Shown here in pieces: positions 8,917-62,823 of a stretch of 64,000 nucleotides of DNA. The notes below the pieces were generated by a model. It ran no database searches and was not told the DNA's origin. It saw only the letters and a list, made by a program, of their open reading frames with translations. Each line of letters starts with the position of its first letter. The first letter of the stretch is position 1. Location: NCBI GenBank assembly GCA_050692195.1, contig JBOGVA010000056.1, positions 6,700 through 70,699 of the forward strand. Reading direction: 5' to 3'. The stretch is from Actinomycetota bacterium (GTDB lineage Bacteria; Actinomycetota; UBA4738). The position numbers were made by a program, and so were the translations under genes.

Positions 8917-10417
8917 GCTGTCACCAAGCAAGCCGACAGTCGCGATGCGACAAAAGCTCGTGCGGCTCCGCAGCCTGGGGACTGAGCCGTTTGCACTTCG
9001 CTTCAAGCGCGCTCGGCCGGTTCACCACATCAAGCGCAAATTCGAGCATCTGATCCCTGGACAAGAAGATTCAAGCCGAATACGAGTGGCGGGCCGAATC
9101 CGCCAGATTAGGCTCCATGGCCGCCTCGCATTCGCGACGTTGCAGGATTCAAGTGAAGCTATTCAGCTTGTCTTCGAGGATTCATTCCTTCTCTCGCGAA
9201 CACCACGCTCGATACGCCGGCCCACCAAGGAGATTACGGAACTGCTCGATATCGGCGACATTGTGGGCGCGGATGGGGCGCCCATCCGAACCCGAAAGGG
9301 TGAGCTCTCAGTCAAGGTCCACAAGTTGACCCTGCTGACCAAGGCCCTCCGGCCGCTGCCCGAGAAGTGGCACGGCCTGCGCGACCCCGAGGCGAAGCAG
9401 CGCCGGCGCTACCTGGACCTGGCCTCGAGCCTGGAGAGCCGTCACGTCGTGTGGGTCCGGGCCAAGGTGCTCAAGGCGTTTCGGCGGATCCTCGAGGAGC
9501 GGGGGTTCGTGGAGGTCGAGACCCCTGTCCTTCAGGTGACCGCAGGCGGAGCCCTGGCTCGGCCCTTCACGACGCGCCATCACGTTCTGGACATCTCTCT
9601 CTATCTCAGGGTGGCCCCGGAGCTGTATCTCAAGCGGCTCCTGGTGGGAGGCCTGGAACGCGTCTACGAGATCGGGCGGAACTTCCGAAACGAGGGGATC
9701 GACCGGGACCACAACCCCGAGTTCACGATGCTCGAGGCCTATCAGGCCTACGGCGATTACGAGGACATGATGGACCTCGCCGAGACGCTGATCCGAGAAG
9801 CAGCGCTTGCGGTCCGCGGGTCGCTCCGATTCGAGTATCGGGGACGCCCGCTCGATCTGGAACCCTCGTGGCGACGGGCGTCCTTGCTCGATCTCCTCTC
9901 GGAGGTGCTCGGCGAAGCGGTCGAGCTCGATCAGCGGAGCCTGGAGTCCGCGGCCGCGCGACACGGGCTCGAGGTGGATCCGGCCTGGGGTCCGGGGAAG
10001 ATCGCGCTGGAGTTGTACGAGAAGAGGGTGGAGAGGACCGTGTGGGACCCCACGTTCGTGATCGATTTCCCTCGCGAGGTGTCGCCGCTGGCCCGGGCCC
10101 ACCGGTCGAAACCAGGCCTGACCGAGCAGTTCGACCTGGTCATCGCGGGCATGGAGATGGGACCGGCCTACTCGGAGCTGACCGACCCCGACGAGCAGCG
10201 GGATCGGTTCCTGGCCCAGCAGGATCTCAGGCGGCGAGGCGACGAGGAGGCCCACCCCCTGGACGAGGACTTCCTGGAGGCCCTGGAGCACGGCATGCCG
10301 CCCGCGGGGGGAATCGGGATCGGTGTCGACCGGGTGACGATGATCCTGGCGGACGAGCCTTCGATCCGGGACGTCATCCTCTTCCCCCACCTCCGCCCGG
10401 AAACCGGCAAGGCTTGA
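8909..10417 (+). CDS. lysS: lysine--tRNA ligase (class II)
   Basis: The ATG at 8909 gives MTELSPSKPTVAMRQKLVRLR... Class II motifs FRNEGID and GGIGIGVDRVTMIL are present. It overlaps the coaX 3' end by 8 nt. Confidence 0.9.
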   Translation: MTELSPSKPTVAMRQKLVRLRSLGTEPFALRFKRARPVHHIKRKFEHLIPGQEDSSRIRVAGRIRQIRLHGRLAFATLQDSSEAIQLVFEDSFLLSRTPRSIRRPTKEITELLDIGDIVGADGAPIRTRKGELSVKVHKLTLLTKALRPLPEKWHGLRDPEAKQRRRYLDLASSLESRHVVWVRAKVLKAFRRILEERGFVEVETPVLQVTAGGALARPFTTRHHVLDISLYLRVAPELYLKRLLVGGLERVYEIGRNFRNEGIDRDHNPEFTMLEAYQAYGDYEDMMDLAETLIREAALAVRGSLRFEYRGRPLDLEPSWRRASLLDLLSEVLGEAVELDQRSLESAAARHGLEVDPAWGPGKIALELYEKRVERTVWDPTFVIDFPREVSPLARAHRSKPGLTEQFDLVIAGMEMGPAYSELTDPDEQRDRFLAQQDLRRRGDEEAHPLDEDFLEALEHGMPPAGGIGIGVDRVTMILADEPSIRDVILFPHLRPETGKA

Positions 10418-10436
10418 GGTCCGTCGGTATCTTCGA

Positions 10437-11843
10437 GTGATGGTTCGCCGACCCGCGCCCGTGATCACCCTTCTCGTCCTGGCCGCCGCCTGTACGTCGG
10501 GCGAGATGGTCCCTCGAGCTTCGCCCAGCGTCCCCGCGGTTGGGTCACCGAACCTGACGCCTACGCCGGCCCCGACCCCCGCCGAGGACCCGGTCGTGCT
10601 CGACGTGGTGGCGGACCTCGCTCCGTCCCCTGGAGGGCTTGGATCGCTGGAGGTGGGAAACACCTACATCGAAGGGATGCAGCTGGCGGTGCAGGAGGTG
10701 AACGGGCGCGGTGGGGTGAGCGGCCGCCCCGTCGAGCTGGCTCTGCACGACGACGAAGGACACCCGGAGCTGTTCGCTGGACTGATCGGGAGCCTGTTGG
10801 AGCAGGATGCGACAGCCATCCTGTACGCAGGTCCGGGGCCTGCCTTGACCCCGCTCCGACCCCAGTTCGCGGCTACCGGCACCCCGGTGATCCTCCTTGA
10901 AGGCGATCTCTACACGAGCCGGGGACTGTTCCCTCAGGTCTTCCAGACGAGCATCCCTTGGGCCTGGCAGGCGCACGACATCGCCCGCTACGTGGTCCGG
11001 GACCGAAAAGCAGAGGACATCGTGTTCGTCGGGACGGGGCCGGAGGCGCCGGTGGCTCGCCGGGCGCTGCGGGGCGCGCTTGAGTACTGGGGCGGCCGCC
11101 TGGCAGCCGGGTTCGATGATCGGTCCCGTGACGAGCGAGGGCTTTCGAGGGCGTTCGAGCGCGCTGCCAGGGCTGATTGGGCTGTTGCATTCGGGCCGCA
11201 GGTCGATGCGCTCGAGGTGGTGAACGCGATCGAGGAGGCAGCGGAGGCCAAGCCAGGCATCACCGGCCCGGCGGCCCTGCTGATTTCCCATCCTGCTCTG
11301 GCCGATCCGGAACCCGGGACCAGTGCTTGCTACACGTACACCTGGGCCGGATGGGCAGACCCCATCCCGAGGGTAGGCAGGTTCCGGCGGCGCTTCGAGA
11401 GGTTTGCGGGACGCCTCCCGCAGGGCCTGGAACAGGAGGGGTACGACGCGATCCGTGCCCTGGTGGTGGCCCTTCGGAAGACGGGCGGCCGAGGGGGAGA
11501 CGAGCTGAGGAAGCAGCTCGAGCAGATCAAGGGGCGGCTGTTCTCGGGGTTCCCCGTGGACCTGGGACCTGACGACCACGTCTTCCCGCCGCGGGACGAG
11601 CTGGGACTGTTCGCCGTGGCCGGACCGGACGAACGGCTCGATCCGTGGCAGGCGCCCCCCACCGCGACAAAGGGTGTGTGGAGGGCGGTGATGCGAACCT
11701 TCACCTACGACGGTCAGCGCACCAATGTCCTCGACCGGGACCGGAGGGTCTTCTTCCCCTTCTGGAACAAGCGCGTCCCCGCCCCGGGGTACTGGCGGTC
11801 CCGCTTCGGGATCGTCACGCGTCCCAGGGACCCGCTGCACTAG
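10437..11843 (+). CDS. lipoprotein, type-1 periplasmic solute-binding protein (Leu/Ile/Val-binding-like); no permease genes nearby
   Basis: Signal/lipobox LLVLAAACTSG. GNTYIEGMQLAVQEVNGRGGVSGRPVEL resembles LivK-type binding proteins. Confidence 0.7.
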   Translation: MMVRRPAPVITLLVLAAACTSGEMVPRASPSVPAVGSPNLTPTPAPTPAEDPVVLDVVADLAPSPGGLGSLEVGNTYIEGMQLAVQEVNGRGGVSGRPVELALHDDEGHPELFAGLIGSLLEQDATAILYAGPGPALTPLRPQFAATGTPVILLEGDLYTSRGLFPQVFQTSIPWAWQAHDIARYVVRDRKAEDIVFVGTGPEAPVARRALRGALEYWGGRLAAGFDDRSRDERGLSRAFERAARADWAVAFGPQVDALEVVNAIEEAAEAKPGITGPAALLISHPALADPEPGTSACYTYTWAGWADPIPRVGRFRRRFERFAGRLPQGLEQEGYDAIRALVVALRKTGGRGGDELRKQLEQIKGRLFSGFPVDLGPDDHVFPPRDELGLFAVAGPDERLDPWQAPPTATKGVWRAVMRTFTYDGQRTNVLDRDRRVFFPFWNKRVPAPGYWRSRFGIVTRPRDPLH

Positions 11844-11994
11844 CCGGCACGAAACGAAGGCTCCCGCTAATCCTGGGGAAGGGACGGCCCGAATAACTTG
11901 TTGAGAGGAACTTGGCGCCGCCTTCCGTCGTCACAGAAAGAGGACGACCCAGACAGGGGCTAGGACGATCGGGGGGTTAGTCTGACCCCACGGG

Positions 11995-12000
11995 TATAAT
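11995..12000 (+). promoter_or_regulatory. possible -10 hexamer (TATAAT) for clpC, giving a ~125-nt leader
   Basis: Perfect TATAAT at 11995-12000 in the 282-nt intergenic region. No convincing -35. A CGCTCGGGGCG element at about 12013-12023 loosely resembles ClgR-type operators. Confidence 0.3.
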
Positions 12001-12124
12001 CGCTGTCGGAGGCGCTCGGGGCGCGGTACGCGCCACCAGGGCGCCTTCTTGGCCCGAGGGATGTGGGCCCGGATTTGCGGGGCAAGATCCAACGGGGCCG
12101 AGGGATCGGCCCGGAGGGAACGAG

Positions 12125-14599
<2,475 letters not shown>

Positions 14600-14815: not shown

Positions 14816-15070
14816 CTACAGCTTTGGGGCGTCGTCCTCTTCGTCGGACGTGTCCTGGCTCGACGTCTCCTCGTCGGTGGTGTCGGTGTCGTCGTCCCCG
14901 GTGTCTCCCGTCGTGGTCGGAGTGGGCGCGGGTGTGACGTCCCCCGTGGCGAAGGCGGGAGGAGCGACGGTCTGCACTATGGGCGCTGCCCACGCGGCGG
15001 CGAGTCCTGTCAGCGCTGCCTTGCGGAGGAACGTCCTGCGCTCGAGTCCGGTTGATTCCTCAGCATCCAT
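14816..15070 (-). CDS. small Tat-signal protein with a hyper-acidic Thr/Asp/Glu-rich mature part
   Basis: 84 aa. Twin-arginine motif ERRTFLRKAALTGLAAAWAAP, AFA-T cleavage-like site, then TGDTGDDDTDTTDEETSSQDTSDEEDD. Confidence 0.5.
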   Translation of the reverse strand: MDAEESTGLERRTFLRKAALTGLAAAWAAPIVQTVAPPAFATGDVTPAPTPTTTGDTGDDDTDTTDEETSSQDTSDEEDDAPKL

Positions 15071-56921: not shown

Positions 56922-57788
56922 ATGCACGCCGTGGCGACGGCCCGGGAAGTCCTGCGCGAGGCTGAGCGGAAGTTGAAGGCCTCCCCCGCAATCGAGCACC
57001 CCCACGCGGGAAAGGAGCGCTACGACGCCGAGCAGCTGCTCGCGGTCGTCCTCGGCCGCGAGCCGGATGGGGAAGAAGAGGTCGTCGGGCCCGCCCTCAC
57101 CCGGTTTCGCAGAATGATCGCCCGCAGGGAATCCGGTGTGCCCCTGGCTTACCTCACGGGTCGGACCACGTTCCTCGAGCTCACGTTGGAGGTGCGGCCG
57201 GGAGCATTCATTCCCCGAGAGTCGAGCGAGTTCCTGGCGGAACAGGCCATCCGACGTCTACGGGGACGTCGCAGGCCCGTACACCTCGACCTGGCGACCG
57301 GGATGGGGCCGGTGGCACTGGCGGTCGCGAGCGCCCTCCCCCGAGCGAAGGTCTTGGGCGTCGACGTGGCCGGCCGTCCGGTGGAGCTGGCCCGTCACAA
57401 CGCGGTGCGGCTGAGAATCCGGAACGTGACCTTTCGCCGGGGCGATCTGTTCGACCCGGTGCCGCGCCGCCTGAAAGGATTGGTGGACGTGATCACCCTG
57501 CATCCACCCTACGTGGGGCGCCGGGAGATGAAGGAGCTGCCCGACGAGATTCGAGGGTTCGAGCCGGAGGAGTCCCTGACCGACCGCTCCCCCAGGGGCC
57601 TGGGGCTCCTGGGAAGGGCCGCGAACGAGGCACCGGAATGGCTTCGCTCTGGCGGATGGCTGCTGGTCGAGGTCAGCCCGGATCGGTCCCGGGCAGTGGC
57701 GCAGGTGTTGAGGCAAACGGGCTTTCGAGGCGTGAGGAGCACGAAGGGCGGAGTCGAGGTGAGCCGGGTCGTGGTGGGCCGGATCTGA
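56922..57788 (+). CDS. PrmC/HemK-related N5-glutamine-type methyltransferase (HPPY variant)
   Basis: LDLATGMGPVALA is SAM motif I. ITLHPPYVG replaces the usual NPPY. Start at the internal ATG 56922. Confidence 0.7.
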   Translation: MHAVATAREVLREAERKLKASPAIEHPHAGKERYDAEQLLAVVLGREPDGEEEVVGPALTRFRRMIARRESGVPLAYLTGRTTFLELTLEVRPGAFIPRESSEFLAEQAIRRLRGRRRPVHLDLATGMGPVALAVASALPRAKVLGVDVAGRPVELARHNAVRLRIRNVTFRRGDLFDPVPRRLKGLVDVITLHPPYVGRREMKELPDEIRGFEPEESLTDRSPRGLGLLGRAANEAPEWLRSGGWLLVEVSPDRSRAVAQVLRQTGFRGVRSTKGGVEVSRVVVGRI

Positions 57789-57816
57789 GCGCTCCCTCAG
57801 TCGGTAGCATGGCCGG

Positions 57817-58335
57817 GTGGTGCCGCAGCGAACACCCGCTCCGAAGCCTGGGAGGCCCCGTGACCCCGACGCGCCTCCCAAGCCCGAACGCCCCCGAGAC
57901 GAGCTCGGACGCCCCCTCCCGCGGGACGCGGAGAACAAGCTCCGCATGGAGGATTATGACTCCCTGACGGTGTCGGAAAACCATAGGCTCGGGATCGAAC
58001 ACTTCAACGCCGGGAACTTCTTTCCCGCGCACGAGGCCTGGGAGACCTGCTGGAAGCAGGCGAAATCCACGGGAGATGCCGAGTTCTTCAAGGGGCTGTC
58101 GCAGCTCGGCGCCGGATACGTGCACCTGCTGAGGCACAACTCCCACGGGGCACACACGCTCCTTCGACGAGGAGCGGGCAGGATGGAGCGGTACGGCGAG
58201 GAGCACTATGGGGTAGAAGCGCGGGCGCTGGCGCGTTCGGCGCTGGCTCATGCAAAGGCCATCGAGCGAGCTGAGCAGGCCGGTGACCCCCCGCCGCGCA
58301 TCCGGTTCCCGAGGATCACCCTCCATCACCCGTAG
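57817..58335 (+). CDS. DUF309-like protein
   Basis: GIEHFNAGNFFPAHEAWETCW....FFKGLSQLGAGYVHL pattern. Confidence 0.65.
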   Translation: MVPQRTPAPKPGRPRDPDAPPKPERPRDELGRPLPRDAENKLRMEDYDSLTVSENHRLGIEHFNAGNFFPAHEAWETCWKQAKSTGDAEFFKGLSQLGAGYVHLLRHNSHGAHTLLRRGAGRMERYGEEHYGVEARALARSALAHAKAIERAEQAGDPPPRIRFPRITLHHP

Positions 58336-58353
58336 GCTTGACCTTGACGGCGC

Positions 58354-58815
58354 TCAGTCGTCTTCGTCTTTGCCGGGCCCGGAGTTGTCGTCTGATTTGT
58401 CGTCCTCGTCGTCGTGGTCCCGGTTGCGAGACCCGGAGCTGTCGTCCGAGTCGTCGTCGTTCCCGGTCCCCGGGCCTGAGTTGTCGTTGTCCCGGTTGCC
58501 GGGGCCGGAGTCATCCGACCGCCCGGATTCGTCGTCGTTCGGGAGGCCGGTACAGCGCGGGTCGTTGGCGTGCTCGGCCTCGTCGCACGGACCGCTGATG
58601 TCCACCCGCAGGCCGTCGTTGCGGTCCCCAGCCGCCGGCACGGCGACTCCGGCGCAACGCGGGTCGTTTGCGTGCTCGGCCTCGTCGCACGGACCGCTGA
58701 TGTCCACCACGCCCGGCGAGTCGTTGCTCCCGGCGGCCGTAGCCAGGATGTTCGCCCCCGTTCCGAGCATCAGGATCGCGGCGGTCGCGATCAGCACCTG
58801 CTTCCAGATCTTCAT
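58354..58815 (-). CDS. secreted protein with a duplicated Cys motif (VDISGPCDEAEHANDPRC x2) and a hyper-acidic DNSGPG-repeat tail
   Basis: The ATG at 58815 is preceded by GGGAGGAAG. Signal peptide MKIWKQVLIATAAILMLGTGANILATAAG. The tail is ...DDSGPGNRDNDNSGPGTGNDDDSDD...DDNSGPGKDEDD. Confidence 0.6.
   Translation of the reverse strand: MKIWKQVLIATAAILMLGTGANILATAAGSNDSPGVVDISGPCDEAEHANDPRCAGVAVPAAGDRNDGLRVDISGPCDEAEHANDPRCTGLPNDDESGRSDDSGPGNRDNDNSGPGTGNDDDSDDSSGSRNRDHDDEDDKSDDNSGPGKDEDD
58556..58707 (-). repeat. two 50-nt direct repeats (1 mismatch) 102 nt apart, in frame within the secreted protein gene
   Basis: 58556-58605 against 58658-58707: cgcgggtcgtt[g/t]gcgtgctcggcctcgtcgcacggaccgctgatgtccac. 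Confidence 0.9.
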
Positions 58816-58970
58816 TGCTTCCTCCCTTTCGCGTCCGGCTGCTGGGCTTACACCTCGACGATAGGAGAGGTGGAGCAAGGAGCTTTTCAGTGTCCGATGA
58901 GGCGGTGGTGAGGGGTCGGTTAGGAAGTGATCAAGGGGTCGGGGTCGTCGCGGAGGCGGAGCTTGGCTCG

Positions 58971-59339
58971 CTAGTCGTCGCCTCCGCCGGGTCCGCTGTT
59001 GTCATCGGAGTCGTCGTCTCTGTTGCCGGGCCCGGAGTTGTCGTCCGACTCATCGTCGTCGTCGTTTCCGGGGCCAGAGTTATCCGAGCGTCCCGAGTTG
59101 TCGTCGTCATCGTCCGTCCTGCGGCGGTCGTTGGCCGATTCGTCTTCTTTGTCGGATGGTCCTCGATTGTCGTCAGAGGAACCGCGCGAGTCATCAGTTT
59201 CGAACACGACGTCGTGGGAGTCGGGGATGACCGAGGCGATCCCGATGGAGCTCGAAGAGATCGCGCCCGCCGCGAGGGCGACAGTCACCGGCAGCACGAT
59301 AGCGCCGATGCCCATCAAAGCGGCCTTGATCCGTCTCAT
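58971..59339 (-). CDS. secreted hyper-acidic DNSGPG-repeat protein (paralogue of the downstream gene's tail)
   Basis: Signal peptide MRRIKAALMGIGAIVLPVTVALAAGA. Tail DDDDDNSGRSDNSGPGNDDDDESDDNSGPGNRDDDSDDNSGPGGGDD. It shares the identical 22-mer TGCCGGGCCCGGAGTTGTCGTC (59024-59045) with 58371-58392. Confidence 0.6.
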   Translation of the reverse strand: MRRIKAALMGIGAIVLPVTVALAAGAISSSSIGIASVIPDSHDVVFETDDSRGSSDDNRGPSDKEDESANDRRRTDDDDDNSGRSDNSGPGNDDDDESDDNSGPGNRDDDSDDNSGPGGGDD

Positions 59340-59406
59340 GAGTTGAAGGTACCAGCCACTCGGTCAGTCAAGGCAGCACGTGGCTCAACTGTCCCCAAGC
59401 AGGAGG

Positions 59407-60825
59407 TTAAGAAAGGGTAGGCGCCCTGGGGAAGGTTGCCTCCACCGATGTTCCCTGCCCATTCGCCAGCCGGATCTCCCCATCCCATCGCCGGACGAGC
59501 TCCGCCGCCACTGCCAGGCCCAGGCCCGTTCCGGGCCCCGCTCGGCGGCCGGTGGATCCCCTGTAGAAGCGCTCGAAGATGCGATGCCGGTCTTCGCGAG
59601 GGACGCCCGGGCCCGTGTCGGAGACGACCAGGGTGGGGCGGCCCGAGTCGGCCCTGGTCTCAACCGTGATATCGGTTCCATCCGGGCAATACCGGATGCT
59701 GTTCTCGATGAGGTTGTCCAGAACGTGTCCGAGGTCCTCGGCGTTTCCCCAGATCATGCACGGTCCGTCGACCCGCTGGAGTATGCGCTTGCCGGCTTGC
59801 GCAGCCGGTCCGCGCCAGCGGTCGACGGCGGCCCGGGCCACCTCGACCAGATCGACCCGACCCCCGGTGGACTCGACGGAGGATGCCCTGGCCAGCTCGA
59901 GCAGGTCTTCGACCAGCTCGCCCAGGCGGTTCACCTCTACCTGCGCCTTTCGGGCCTGAGCGCCGGCGGACCCTCCTTCCCCCTCGATGGCCTCCAGGCG
60001 GAGCTTGATGCCGGTCAGTGGCGTGCGGAGCTGATGGGAGGCATTCGCCAGGAAGTCGCGCTGGGCGGTGATGTTCGCGGCGAGGGCCCCGGCCATCCGA
60101 TTGAACGACCGGGCCAGGGTAGCCACTTCCTTCGGTCCTTCTTCCGGCGCGCGAGTCTCCAGGTCGCCCTTCCCCAGCCGCCTCGCGGCTTCCTCCAGCC
60201 GTCGCACGGGTCGCGCCAGCGAGGTGGCCAGCACCCACGCCAAGGCCAGGCCGACGGCGATCACTCCGAGCCCGATGAGGGCCAGGCCCAGCCATCGGCG
60301 CTGGACGCCCGCGGTGATCTCGTCCTGGGGAAGGGAGAAGCGCACGGCGCCCACCACCGCTCCGTTGTCCACCACAGGGACCGCGACCATGAGCAGGTCG
60401 TCGCCTACCGTGTCGCTGAAGCGGCCCCGGATGTTGATCTGGCCCCCCAGCGCCACCGCGAATTCCGGTCGCTCCGAGGTGGCGAACGGGCCGCCCCTCT
60501 CGGCCGAACCGGAGCTGTCCGAGATCAGCAACCCCTCCGCGTCGACCACGACGATGCGACTGCCTTGGGTTCTCCCGGCGAGATCCGTGATGCGAGCATC
60601 GATCGCCCCGACCGCCGCCGTCTCGCCGGTCGCCACGTCCTGCTGGGCTTCCGCCACGTCGTCGGAGATGCGGGAGGCCAGGAGTGCGGCGCTGCCCAGC
60701 GTCTTCACCTGGAACTCGGTGGCAGCGCGCTGCGAAATGGTTCGAGCGAGAGGGACCTCGAGGGCAATGACCACGACGGCCAGCAGGTATGCCGCGGCCA
60801 GCACGACCCTGGTTCGCAGACTCAC
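59407..60825 (-). CDS. sensor histidine kinase (2 TM, HAMP, HisKA, HATPase_c)
   Basis: H-box ASHQLRTPLTGIKLRLEA, N box LDNLIENSIRY and G boxes DTGPGV / GTGLGLAV. The start overlaps the upstream regulator stop by 4 nt. Confidence 0.9.
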   Translation of the reverse strand: MSLRTRVVLAAAYLLAVVVIALEVPLARTISQRAATEFQVKTLGSAALLASRISDDVAEAQQDVATGETAAVGAIDARITDLAGRTQGSRIVVVDAEGLLISDSSGSAERGGPFATSERPEFAVALGGQINIRGRFSDTVGDDLLMVAVPVVDNGAVVGAVRFSLPQDEITAGVQRRWLGLALIGLGVIAVGLALAWVLATSLARPVRRLEEAARRLGKGDLETRAPEEGPKEVATLARSFNRMAGALAANITAQRDFLANASHQLRTPLTGIKLRLEAIEGEGGSAGAQARKAQVEVNRLGELVEDLLELARASSVESTGGRVDLVEVARAAVDRWRGPAAQAGKRILQRVDGPCMIWGNAEDLGHVLDNLIENSIRYCPDGTDITVETRADSGRPTLVVSDTGPGVPREDRHRIFERFYRGSTGRRAGPGTGLGLAVAAELVRRWDGEIRLANGQGTSVEATFPRAPTLS

Positions 60826-61526
60826 CCCGCCAGCTCCTCGGCCGAGGCGAACCGGAATCCCACCCCCCTCACCGTGTGGATGTACCGCGGCGAGGCAGGG
60901 TCGTCCTCGAGCTTCTTGCGCAGCGAGCTCACGTGGACGTCAAGGGTCTTCGTCGATCCGTACCAGTTCGGGTCCCACACCTCGTCCATGAGCTCTGTCC
61001 GCCGCACGACCTTGCCGGCTTCCTCCATCAACCGGCGCAGCAGCTCGAACTCTTTGAGGGTGAGCTGGAGTGGCCGGCCCCCTCTGGTCACCTCACGCGT
61101 GTCGAGGCTCATCCGTATGTCTCCCATCTCGAGCGACGACGCGCCGGTCGGGGCGGGCTCCGCGGTGCGACGAAGGACCGCCCGGATGCGAGCGATCAGC
61201 TCGGCTCCGCTGAAAGGCTTGGCCACGTAGTCGTCGGCCCCCAGCTCCAGGCCGATCACCCGGTCCATCTCCTCCCCCCTGGCGGTGAGCATCACGACGG
61301 GGGTCCGCGATGAGCGTCGAATCTGTCGAAGAACGTCTCTGCCGTCTCCGTCGGGGAGCATGATGTCCAGCAGGATCAGATCCGGAGGCCGGGTGCGAAA
61401 GGCCTCCAAGCCCGATTCGGCGGTGGCGGCGACGACCGCCGAGAAGCCCTCTCGCTCCAGGGCGGCAGCGAGCGGCTCCGAGATGGACTCCTCGTCCTCG
61501 ATCAGAAGGATGCGTCGTCTGGGCAT
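60822..61526 (-). CDS. OmpR/PhoB-family response regulator
   Basis: REC (RILLIEDEE...LILLDIMLPDGDG). Winged helix (LTLKEFELLRRL...IHTVRGVGFRF). Confidence 0.9.
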   Translation of the reverse strand: MPRRRILLIEDEESISEPLAAALEREGFSAVVAATAESGLEAFRTRPPDLILLDIMLPDGDGRDVLRQIRRSSRTPVVMLTARGEEMDRVIGLELGADDYVAKPFSGAELIARIRAVLRRTAEPAPTGASSLEMGDIRMSLDTREVTRGGRPLQLTLKEFELLRRLMEEAGKVVRRTELMDEVWDPNWYGSTKTLDVHVSSLRKKLEDDPASPRYIHTVRGVGFRFASAEELAG

Positions 61527-61554
61527 CGCGATGGGCGCCTGAACACTTTACCCA

Positions 61555-62823
61555 TCAGCCAACGACTCGGTACGCCTCCACCGGCTCCACGCGCCCCTTT
61601 ACCTGTTTCGGCCCCACCGACTCCGCCGCCATCCCGGGAGCGGCGGTGACTGTCGCCGCGGTGGCCAGGACCTCCCCGGCCCCGGCCTCGGACTGCAGTC
61701 GCTGGGCCAGGTTCACCGCGTCCCCGACCACCGTGTACTCGAGCCGCCCTCCCCCTCCGACGGTGCCCGCGATGACGGTGCCCGTGTTCACGCCGACGCC
61801 CATCTTCAGAGCTGGGACCCCCTCGGTTGCCGTCTCGTTGTTCAGCTCCCGCTGGCGTGCCTGCATGGCCAGCGCGCAGCGCAGCGCTCGCTCGGCGTGA
61901 TCGGGAATCGGATCGGGAGCCCCGAACACTGCCATGACCCCGTCGCCTGAGAACTTGTCGATCGTCCCTCCGTGTTCCAGAACCACCTCAGCCATCGCCG
62001 ACAGGTGTCGGGCGAGGATGTCGGCAACCTCCCGGGCGGGGAGCTGCTCGGCGATGGTCGAGAAGCCGCGAATGTCCGAGAAGAGGATGGTCGCCTCCAC
62101 CTCCACCTGGGCACCCGCGGCCGACGGCGCGGCCGCCAGCCGGTCTGCGAACTGGGAGGGGACGAATGAGCGGAGAGCCCGGGCGGACGTGGCCGCGGCA
62201 TGGAGCCGCTTGATCTCATCCACGGCCGTGCTGGCCCCCCGGCCGGCCTCGACCGAGAGACGTTGGAAGAGGCTCGTCACCTTCCTGTCGATGGCCTCCT
62301 GGCTGGTATGGAGCGCCTCGGCCATCTCCACGTAGCCATACCCCTGGGCCATGAGGTCCAGGATGGCGCGGTCCTCCTCCGAACCCTGCTTCCGGTCGGA
62401 GAGGCGGGCGGCGATCGTGGGGTCGATCGACGACCCACCCGCGGCCACCTCCCGGATCGCCCGGGCCAGCTCGTCTCCCTGGCCCAGCCGATCCTTGAGC
62501 AGGTACGCCAGGCCACTGTCGCCTCCTCCCAGCAGAGCCAGCGCATATGCCTCGTCGTCGTGCGCGGAGAGAACGACCACGCCTGTGCCGGGGTGCCGCC
62601 GGCGGATCTCATGGGCGGCCTCGATCCCCTCGAGCTGGAAGTTGGGAGGCATCTTGATGTCTGTGACCACGACGTCCGGCCGGTGCTCCCCGGCGGCGGC
62701 CAGGAGCGTAGGCGCATCCTCGGCCACGCCCACCACCTCGATGCCCTCGCTGGCGCCGAGGAGGGCCCGCACGCCCTCTCGAACCAGCACGTTGTCGTCT
62801 CCTAGGACAACCCGGATCGTCAC
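61555..62823 (-). CDS. response-regulator receiver + LuxR-type HTH + class III adenylate/guanylate cyclase fusion protein
   Basis: REC (IRVVLGDDNVLVREG...VVVTDIKMPP). HTH (EDRAILDLMAQGYGYVEMAEALHTSQEAIDRKVTSLFQRL). Cyclase (ATILFSDIRGFS...GDGVMAVFGAP...MGVGVNTGTVIAG...VGDAVNLAQRL). Confidence 0.85.
   Translation of the reverse strand: MTIRVVLGDDNVLVREGVRALLGASEGIEVVGVAEDAPTLLAAAGEHRPDVVVTDIKMPPNFQLEGIEAAHEIRRRHPGTGVVVLSAHDDEAYALALLGGGDSGLAYLLKDRLGQGDELARAIREVAAGGSSIDPTIAARLSDRKQGSEEDRAILDLMAQGYGYVEMAEALHTSQEAIDRKVTSLFQRLSVEAGRGASTAVDEIKRLHAAATSARALRSFVPSQFADRLAAAPSAAGAQVEVEATILFSDIRGFSTIAEQLPAREVADILARHLSAMAEVVLEHGGTIDKFSGDGVMAVFGAPDPIPDHAERALRCALAMQARQRELNNETATEGVPALKMGVGVNTGTVIAGTVGGGGRLEYTVVGDAVNLAQRLQSEAGAGEVLATAATVTAAPGMAAESVGPKQVKGRVEPVEAYRVVG

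Follow-up and report, generated by a model that had tools for sequence, protein, structure and literature searches.

A conserved two-component module with two putatively exported acidic proteins, one of an unnamed family with a near-invariant 19-residue Cys motif, in uncultured soil Actinomycetota

Introduction

Two-component systems with dedicated exported partners are already known; what is new here is the occurrence of an unnamed protein family in such a module. The locus lies in a 64,000-nucleotide stretch of contig JBOGVA010000056.1 from an Actinomycetota bacterium of the UBA4738 lineage (the window) and comprises an OmpR/PhoB-type response regulator, a sensor histidine kinase and two small genes, termed A and B, which encode highly acidic proteins with N-terminal export signals or anchors. 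Judged by the gene neighbourhoods of its relatives, this set of four genes is a conserved module in hundreds of uncultured soil Actinomycetota, and together with its DNA sites it provides a complete predicted circuit, from sensor and regulator to DNA site and exported products, in organisms without genetics.

The closest counterparts in their mode of working come from metal resistance systems. The periplasmic protein SilE is disordered and acts as a metal sponge; its gene has a separate inducible promoter next to silRS, and PcoE is under CusRS control (PMC5008109). B resembles these proteins of ~140 amino acids (aa) in being small, Sec-exported and predicted disordered, in its repeated short motifs, in the location of its gene beside an OmpR-type system and in having a promoter of its own. 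Nevertheless, B has no sequence similarity to SilE or PcoE, and its candidate ligands are Cys, His, Asp and Glu, whereas those of SilE and PcoE are His and Met. In addition, the module contains no efflux pump or ATPase, includes a second, presumably membrane-anchored partner, A, and resides in Actinomycetota instead of Enterobacteria.

Other exported partners comprise HbpS, which leaves the cell by the twin-arginine translocation (Tat) pathway, and the CpxP/Spy/ZraP proteins, among which ZraP binds zinc. In the CpxAR and ZraSR systems, the exported protein is both the main local target of the regulator and a modulator of the kinase, a feedback that for A and B is proposed by analogy; moreover, CpxP, Spy and ZraP are folded helical LTXXQ proteins, whereas A and B have no Pfam match to the LTXXQ family and no relative in the PDB at E ≤ 10. 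In Streptomyces, SenS has in HbpS a secreted partner that senses redox state and iron (PMC4991794, PMC3754957); HbpS forms a folded octamer of Pfam family PF03928 and shares iron-binding D/ExxE motifs with Ftr1p and PmrB (PMC3754957). The HbpS-SenS-SenR system thus parallels the present locus as an actinobacterial secreted protein encoded beside a kinase and a regulator, with acidic motifs of the D/ExxE type, but A and B are predicted disordered, carry Sec-type signals and belong to no Pfam family, the HbpS/GlcG domain PF03928 included. Tat export of A or B was considered and rejected, the N-termini being very short and the RR of A lacking a Tat-like consensus after it.

Bufferins (BufA), small Cys-containing proteins with Sec signals, act under metal stress by binding copper in the envelope, and they need adjacent MNIO (DUF692) and DUF2063 genes for the conversion of Cys to thiooxazole (PMC11626156). 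B likewise combines a Sec signal peptide with Cys residues in a small exported protein; however, MNIO (DUF692) and DUF2063 genes are not seen in the annotated neighbourhoods, no extra enzyme is conserved over the 80 loci compared below, and DUF2282 and BUF_6/12Cys give no Pfam match in A or B. A bufferin-like or other pathway for peptides made by the ribosome and modified after translation (RiPPs) was rejected on the same ground, that no further gene is conserved in the neighbourhood.

In gene order, the locus resembles WalRK-YycHI and MtrAB-LpqB, in which a regulator and a kinase are followed by one or more exported or anchored accessory proteins. The closest NCBIfam models for the regulator and the kinase include MtrA/MtrB and YycF/WalK, well below their cut-offs, and all equivalog scores fall short, both for the regulator (MtrA 227 against a cut-off of 300, PhoB 221 against 296, YycF 217 against 340) and for the kinase (MtrB 177 against 450, WalK 184 against 725, CreC 171 against 356). 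The pair is not the MtrAB, WalRK, PhoBR or CreBC equivalog, and YycH, YycI and LpqB are folded domains, compared with the acidic and predicted disordered A and B. By analogy, the module resembles SilE/PcoE-SilRS or CpxP-CpxAR in its likely working and WalRK-YycHI or MtrAB-LpqB in its order, being a member of none of them.

Organization of the four-gene module

Regulator, kinase, A and B are co-directional genes of the minus strand, arranged as follows:

60822-61526, minus strand: OmpR/PhoB-type response regulator (Pfam Response_reg and Trans_reg_C), presumed binder of the direct-repeat operators described below
59407-60825, minus strand: sensor histidine kinase (Pfam HAMP, HisKA and HATPase) with two transmembrane segments and a Cache/PDC-like outer domain (weak Cache match)
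58971-59339, minus strand: gene A, 122 aa; residues 1-27 form a putative membrane anchor or signal, and the Asp-rich tail that follows contains three DNSGPG repeats; no Cys
58354-58815, minus strand: gene B, 153 aa; predicted signal peptide (residues 1-29, ending ATA-AG), two Cys motifs and an Asp-rich tail with three D[DN]SGPG repeats

A reading of the DNA made from the sequence alone had described two minus-strand open reading frames (ORFs) downstream of a two-component system, and both are present at the coordinates given (A 58971-59339, B 58354-58815); its intergenic gaps of 68 and 156 nucleotides (nt) are each one too high, the measured values being 67 nt between kinase and A and 155 nt between A and B. 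That reading had also counted the D-[DN]-S-G-P-G repeat at least three times per protein, which turns out to be exactly three in each, and had reported two copies of a Cys-pair motif in the distal protein, which agrees with the two occurrences of VDISGPCDEAEHANDPRC in B, whose coding sequences differ at 3 of 54 nt. Mature A contains 34% Asp plus Glu, with a net charge of about -24 and no Cys, and mature B 30%, with a net charge of about -27, four Cys and three His; hydrophobic residues are very scarce in both, and the only Met of B is the initiator.

B relatives are encoded at 352 loci in species-representative genomes, from which 80 listed loci were drawn for the locus comparisons; 77 of these, from other species, could be used for the B-start, linkage and operator counts. 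The 80 loci are metagenome-assembled genomes (MAGs) assigned to Thermoleophilaceae, Gaiellaceae, Solirubrobacterales, Acidimicrobiales and 'uncultured Actinomycetes', all being uncultured Thermoleophilia, Acidimicrobiia and related soil Actinomycetota. When the regulator and kinase of the window were searched in them by tblastn, orthologues of both on the same strand were found adjoining B in at least 63 of the 77 loci, so that the proposed link of the gene pair to a two-component system holds across relatives and is much stronger than the sequence-only reading could know. In most loci, the regulator orthologues beside B-type genes share 58-77% identity with that of the window, and the adjacent kinase orthologues 38-63%. 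Two gene orders occur: (i) that of the window, regulator-kinase-A-B, with identities of 68-85% for the regulator and 52-63% for the kinase, and (ii) B-regulator-kinase-A', with ~58-65% and ~38-43%, respectively. Within the kinase, conservation is lowest in the sensor domain (residues ~30-180). Clustering of all ORFs in the 80 loci revealed nothing conserved besides regulator, kinase, A and B, the next cluster reaching at most 16 loci; thus, no maturase, protease, exporter or metal pump is conserved with the module.

Exceptions to this arrangement are few. In two Acidimicrobiia loci, the genes directly after B encode a HisKA_3 kinase and a NarL-type regulator instead, and a few other loci, mostly Ilumatobacteraceae, carry orphan B genes without an adjacent two-component system, which retain the canonical motif. 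In a Microthrixaceae MAG (L084; 9443-9883, minus strand, and 10001-12594, plus strand), B is followed by a HisKA_3 kinase and a NarL-type regulator, and a divergent gene of 146 aa encodes another anchored protein with an acidic SGxG tail; read from its gene content, this locus follows the same logic as the module of the window on a different two-component family. As a further observation, three metagenomic proteins combine both kinds of sequence in a single ORF, with a receiver N-terminus followed by Cys motifs in P0031 and P0041 and motifs followed by a regulator in P0192. Deletion, frameshift or chimeric assembly may account for these fusions, which are independent evidence that regulator and Cys-motif genes adjoin.

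The B family and its 19-residue motif

A homologue search with B retrieved 1342 proteins at E ≤ 0.01, which, where named, are called 'hypothetical protein' and once 'uncharacterized membrane protein', those named after an organism coming from Actinomycetota metagenome bins. Members of the family share (i) a signal peptide, (ii) one to four copies of a near-invariant 19-residue motif, D-[IV]-SGPCDEAEHANDPRC-[TA]-G, and (iii) an Asp-rich tail with SGxG repeats; B possesses all three, and A has an N-terminal hydrophobic segment and the tail, without the motif. A profile built from the motif only recovered 497 clusters at 50% identity (1.84 billion representatives), all of them small proteins of 67-400 aa. 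These searches place B in a large, unnamed and widespread protein family. Its two motif copies are located as follows:

58648-58704, minus strand: motif copy 1, B residues 38-56, DISGPCDEAEHANDPRCAG
58546-58602, minus strand: motif copy 2, B residues 72-90, DISGPCDEAEHANDPRCTG

Both copies include the invariant alignment columns, for which frequencies were derived from 171 motif copies with the consensus D-[IV]-S-G-P-C-D-E-A-E-H-A-N-D-P-R-C-[TA]-G. Eight positions are invariant in 171/171 copies, comprising two Asp, the Gly, a Pro, both Cys and two Glu, while an additional Asp is kept in 170 and the His in 162. In the resulting layout, the two Cys stand 10 residues apart, Asp-Glu-x-Glu is invariant and the His nearly so; DxxE and ExxH patterns are both present and lie within a short helical turn bounded by prolines. 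Copies are near-identical within a protein, the linkers between them are unconserved, and the flanks are variable at positions -8 to -6 and +14 to +16. The retention of such a motif across orders, in otherwise unconserved proteins predicted to be disordered, is a sign of strong constraint of a chemical kind, for which a metal site is the likeliest reason.

Disorder is predicted for B by AlphaFold2 (18 sequences), with a mean predicted local distance difference test (pLDDT) score of 54.9; a helix of at least four residues is formed by the signal peptide only, no strand occurs outside it, and the motifs appear as short helical turns with pLDDT of ~58-66. Scans of A, B, the A-type relatives and the longest family members against Pfam, NCBIfam and PADLOC gave nothing significant; A matches no Pfam or NCBIfam family at E ≤ 1 and B yields noise-level matches only. 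A sequence profile search of the PDB found no match at E ≤ 10, which agrees with the earlier statement that neither protein could be placed in a characterised family. Calcium-binding modules (EF-hand, Excalibur, RTX and thrombospondin type 3) gave no Pfam match at E ≤ 1, and a full-text literature search for the motif strings found no paper. The Prp protease family, to which the motif aligned repeatedly at ~12-16 bits against a cut-off of 201, was dismissed as noise.

Several variations on this architecture were encountered. Three metagenomic proteins of 267-302 aa (P0190, P0164 and P0191) contain two or three motifs and an extra conserved segment of ~90 aa before the acidic tail, with the pattern …GSVAYSFDG…VEVxFxxGTxRVDVxVE…VRERVRTRD… and no Pfam match. 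A further one (P0124) carries the DDDDNSGPGNANDD tail on an unrelated N-terminal domain, itself without a significant Pfam match, so that the acidic SGPG tail appears to be a module also used on other exported proteins. The tail unit of A and B, acidic residues followed by x-S-G-x-G (58974-59198 and 58357-58539), matches the eukaryotic glycosaminoglycan attachment consensus (acidic residues, then SGxG).

Coding potential of A and B

A and B are real genes in the correct frame, far beyond chance. Among the 171 motif copies from 80 other genomes, one Ser is encoded by AGC (64), TCC (59) or TCG (31) and one Asp by GAC (113) or GAT (57); the residues are thus near-invariant while the codons vary freely, which indicates selection on the protein in the called frame. 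The G+C content at third codon positions (GC3), 0.78 for A and 0.88 for B, is like that of neighbouring genes. A signal-peptide-like N-terminus is found in 77/77 B genes with an assignable start and a Shine-Dalgarno-like sequence precedes 60 of these 77; B of the window starts with ATG, and GGGAGG lies just 5' (58826-58821). The sequence-only reading had allowed that another frame might be the real one, and the synonymous codon variation, GC3 and conserved signal peptides uphold the called frame.

The opposite view, in which both ORFs are artefacts of a wrong frame or of non-coding low-complexity DNA, could draw on the long Ser-rich ORFs of the plus strand over the same DNA and on the absence of the exact A and B proteins from a collection of 15 billion proteins (B searched with its ATG and with a longer TTG start), which does contain the kinase (MGH2573224.1) and the regulator (MGH2573225.1) of the window. 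Nevertheless, the motif is invariant as protein and synonymously variable as codons, including switches of Ser between the AGC and TCN families, and the conserved signal peptides, the Shine-Dalgarno-like sequences, the GC3 values and the conserved promoters described below all speak against this view, which we regard as refuted, with next to no probability left. The Ser-rich plus-strand ORFs were rejected as genes, being mirror artefacts. The absence of A and B from a collection that holds their neighbours suggests that the source annotation probably did not call them, and gene callers may miss acidic low-complexity genes of this kind.

Gene A and its relatives

Owing to its low complexity, A used alone as a query retrieved no more than 11 weak matches, and location behind the kinase gene was therefore taken to define the A family. 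In 50/50 loci with a full kinase gene, the kinase is followed by an ORF, which combines a hydrophobic N-terminus, an acidic tail and SGxG repeats in 29 of them, two of these traits in 20 and one in the remaining locus (L004); A-type genes start 10-70 nt after the kinase stop codon. The N-terminus of A comprises a 22-residue hydrophobic segment conserved in relatives, which share the anchor MxRARxLLLAxxGLAxPVxLALAVY in the gene order of the window. The classical signal peptide formerly ascribed to both proteins accordingly stands for B only, since the segment of A may, to judge from its sequence, be an uncleaved membrane anchor.

A single motif, canonical (SGPCDEAEHADDPRC) or degenerate (DDLPGKCDEPEHxxDPDCDP), is often present in A-type relatives; the A of the window and that of its closest relative (L001) have lost theirs. 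In the other gene order, most A' genes begin ~10-14 nt past the stop codon of the kinase, and A' contains a conserved AAVGIGLLANTISGDSVGLSAxPLSAG segment, an Arg-rich stretch and an acidic tail. The stretch between anchor and tail, seen in loci L005-L063 (for example L040, 10645-11172), spans 30-40 residues rich in Arg, Ala and Glu (RRAERRRAARRRAAERRR), placing strongly basic and strongly acidic blocks within one exported protein.

Operators and promoters

Direct repeats spaced 11 bp apart are the usual type of site of OmpR/PhoB-family regulators. Such repeats are conserved upstream of B, with a consensus of about CTTTACC-N4-CTTAACC, and candidate sites in the window are the following:

59405-59422, minus strand: operator upstream of A, which overlaps the stop codon of the kinase (59409-59407); half-sites CTACC (59420-59416) and TTAACC (59410-59405) at 11-bp spacing
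59346-59351, minus strand: -10-like hexamer TACCTT, ending 6 nt before the ATG of A; TAnnnT conserved across loci
58907-58934, minus strand: operator upstream of B, TGATC (58933-58929), TAACC (58922-58918) and TCACC (58911-58907), 11 bp apart
58858-58863, minus strand: -10-like hexamer TATCGT of the B promoter, at a conserved spacing from the operator

An operator matrix, trained only on sites upstream of B, finds 84 sites above 14 bits in 2.1 Mb on both strands, most of them within ~130 nt of an assigned B start; in most loci they lie 27-128 nt upstream of that start, the site of the window being at -124. The operator is present in 63/63 loci with an adjacent OmpR-type system and in 0/12 without one (Fisher p = 2.5e-12 for loci related by descent), two more operator-bearing loci having been set aside because their contigs end less than 200 nt after B. 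When the same matrix was applied to the kinase-stop region before A, its score reached at least the 99th background percentile in 20/20 loci with the gene order of the window and in 21/30 with the other order. No operator was found before the regulator gene in the gene order of the window, and autoregulation of the two-component system was dropped for that order.

As regards the promoters, a generic sigma-70 scan returned no promoter-like site and two terminator-like sites, both on the plus strand, and the promoters were therefore located by comparison between loci. In 23 loci, practically all with the gene order of the window, a TAnnnT hexamer follows the B operator at a distance of 53-55 nt. 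Another ends 6-10 nt before the A start codon in 26 of 28 loci; a consistent -35 element could not be defined from the loci compared. No Shine-Dalgarno sequence precedes A in 11/11 loci of the window's gene order, and this absence, together with the close TAnnnT hexamer, suggests that A is probably translated from a leaderless mRNA. A scan of 57500-62000 against Rfam gave nothing at E ≤ 0.1.

Since each gene has its own conserved promoter and direct-repeat operator, A and B appear from the locus comparison to be transcription units of their own, as opposed to a mere tail end of the kinase operon, and the adjacent regulator probably controls each of them. The operon with the two-component system suggested by the sequence-only reading consequently survives as a linkage in at least 63/77 loci, while the simple operon tail does not.

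Proposed function and alternatives

Taken together with the analogy to SilE/PcoE, A and B would represent the local regulon of the regulator, an exported polyanionic binder of metal or other cations with possible feedback on the kinase, a reading that we favour tentatively, at somewhat less than an even probability. The kinase would sense a cue outside the cytoplasm, and the phosphorylated regulator would bind the 11-bp-spaced direct repeats before A and B and switch on their separate promoters. A, made from leaderless mRNA, would stay at the membrane and B would be released by the Sec pathway, both as disordered polyanions whose Asp-rich SGxG tails could bind cations at low affinity. The two invariant CDEAEHANDPRC loops of B would form specific metal sites, with the Cys pair serving either as a disulfide staple or as thiolate ligands, and the two proteins together would capture or buffer some metal or multivalent cation on the cell surface, with possible feedback to the kinase.

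A chemical constraint on the motif fits better than recognition by the kinase, given that the sensor domain is poorly conserved, that B has an unrelated kinase partner in some loci and that orphan B genes keep the motif. Among the three roles proposed from the sequence, cation or metal binder accordingly ranks first, accessory ligand of the kinase second and processed precursor last, the last because the neighbourhood contains no conserved gene for processing or export and because the motif, unlike the sensor domain, does not vary across orders. Several points weigh against the metal-binding regulon. No metal-handling gene (efflux pump, P-type ATPase or multicopper oxidase) is conserved nearby in the 80 loci, metal binding is deduced from residue identity alone, AlphaFold2 gives no confident fold for the motif (pLDDT ~58-66), and the A of the window is entirely without it. 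With regard to regulation, the counts upstream of B are partly circular, as the matrix was trained on those regions and only the sites before A constitute an independent test; the loci are phylogenetically related, so that the Fisher p-value of 2.5e-12 overstates their independence; and the regulator could repress instead of activate. Far more confidence attaches to the module and its regulation than to the ligand.

An arrangement in which A and B are accessory co-sensors, input to the kinase and not its output, would yield a three- or four-component system, with A touching the kinase through its membrane helix and loaded or oxidised B binding the sensor domain and altering its activity, as in the parallels HbpS-SenS-SenR, CpxP-CpxA and YycH/YycI-WalK. 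The order of a regulator, a kinase and two exported proteins mirrors walR-walK-yycH-yycI, an A-type gene always lies directly after the kinase (10-70 nt past its stop), the membrane helix of A and the segment just outside the membrane are conserved, and B pairs also with a second, unrelated kinase type; a precedent exists in HbpS, the secreted redox- and iron-sensing partner of SenS (PMC4991794, PMC3754957). On the other hand, the sensor domain is weakly conserved compared with the invariant motif, B occurs as an orphan without an adjacent two-component system, and separate regulated promoters suit an inducible output better than a partner held at fixed ratio to the kinase. We consider a co-sensor role unlikely, although it overlaps with the favoured regulon in that CpxP is both output and inhibitor. 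A more specific proposal, to which we give a still lower probability, takes the 19-residue Cys/His/acidic loop as a hitherto unrecognized, free-standing extracytoplasmic metal/redox module and A and B as sensory input of the kinase or, in an alternative form, the loops as a released peptide signal. If true, it would describe a 'four-component' pathway in which a Cache-type kinase (in Acidimicrobiia one of the HisKA_3 type) receives its information from a secreted disordered protein in loaded or oxidised form or, in the alternative form, a peptide signal shared across orders of Actinomycetota.

Purely structural surface polyanions are about as doubtful as that proposal. A and B would act as a decoy for cationic antimicrobials, as a phosphate-free substitute for anionic wall polymers or as water-holding hydrophilins, with the Cys loop used for anchoring or cross-linking only. 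Such roles would suit the net charges of -24 (A) and -27 (B), the very few hydrophobic residues, the predicted disorder of B and the combination of one membrane-anchored and one free partner, as well as the operator half-sites TTTACC/TTAACC, 11 bp apart, which may resemble Gram-positive Pho boxes; they leave unexplained why the His and five acidic residues of the loop are as conserved as the Cys, and no cell-wall or phosphate genes are conserved nearby in the 80 loci. Least probable among these functions, and quite improbable, is a multi-copy precursor from which the 19-residue loops would be excised, closed into rings by disulfides and sensed by the adjacent kinase, with positive feedback through the operator. 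The one to four near-identical copies separated by unconserved linkers, and a gene placed beside a kinase and a regulator and behind an operator in the manner of autoinducer genes, are what such a precursor predicts, but pheromones as a rule diversify, and this motif stays the same in Thermoleophilia, Acidimicrobiia and other classes. Furthermore, no conserved protease or exporter lies nearby in the 80 loci, the variable flanks of the motif offer no conserved cleavage sites, the kinase is of the Cache-domain type with a poorly conserved sensor domain and not a multi-pass pheromone receptor, and the long acidic tail and gene A would be left without explanation. Agr/Com-type pheromone systems were rejected on similar grounds, there being no conserved processing or export gene and the kinase having two transmembrane segments with Cache-like, HAMP and HisKA domains.

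Other features of the window

A third small acidic protein, encoded at 14816-15070 (minus strand), had been put forward as part of a lineage-specific theme. This ORF of 84 aa has a twin-arginine signal (RRTFLRKAAL) and a tail rich in Thr, Asp and Glu; it contains neither the SGPG repeat nor the Cys motif and is therefore unrelated to A and B, and the theme falls away. Two genes flanking the module were rejected as parts of it, namely (i) the DUF309 gene (57817-58335), which is syntenic only in the closest relatives L001, L002 and L003, and (ii) the receiver-cyclase gene (61555-62823), syntenic only in L001 and L003. The latter, on the minus strand, ends 28 nt upstream of the regulator gene; its product joins a receiver to an adenylate/guanylate cyclase domain, and the region between them gives weak helix-turn-helix matches.

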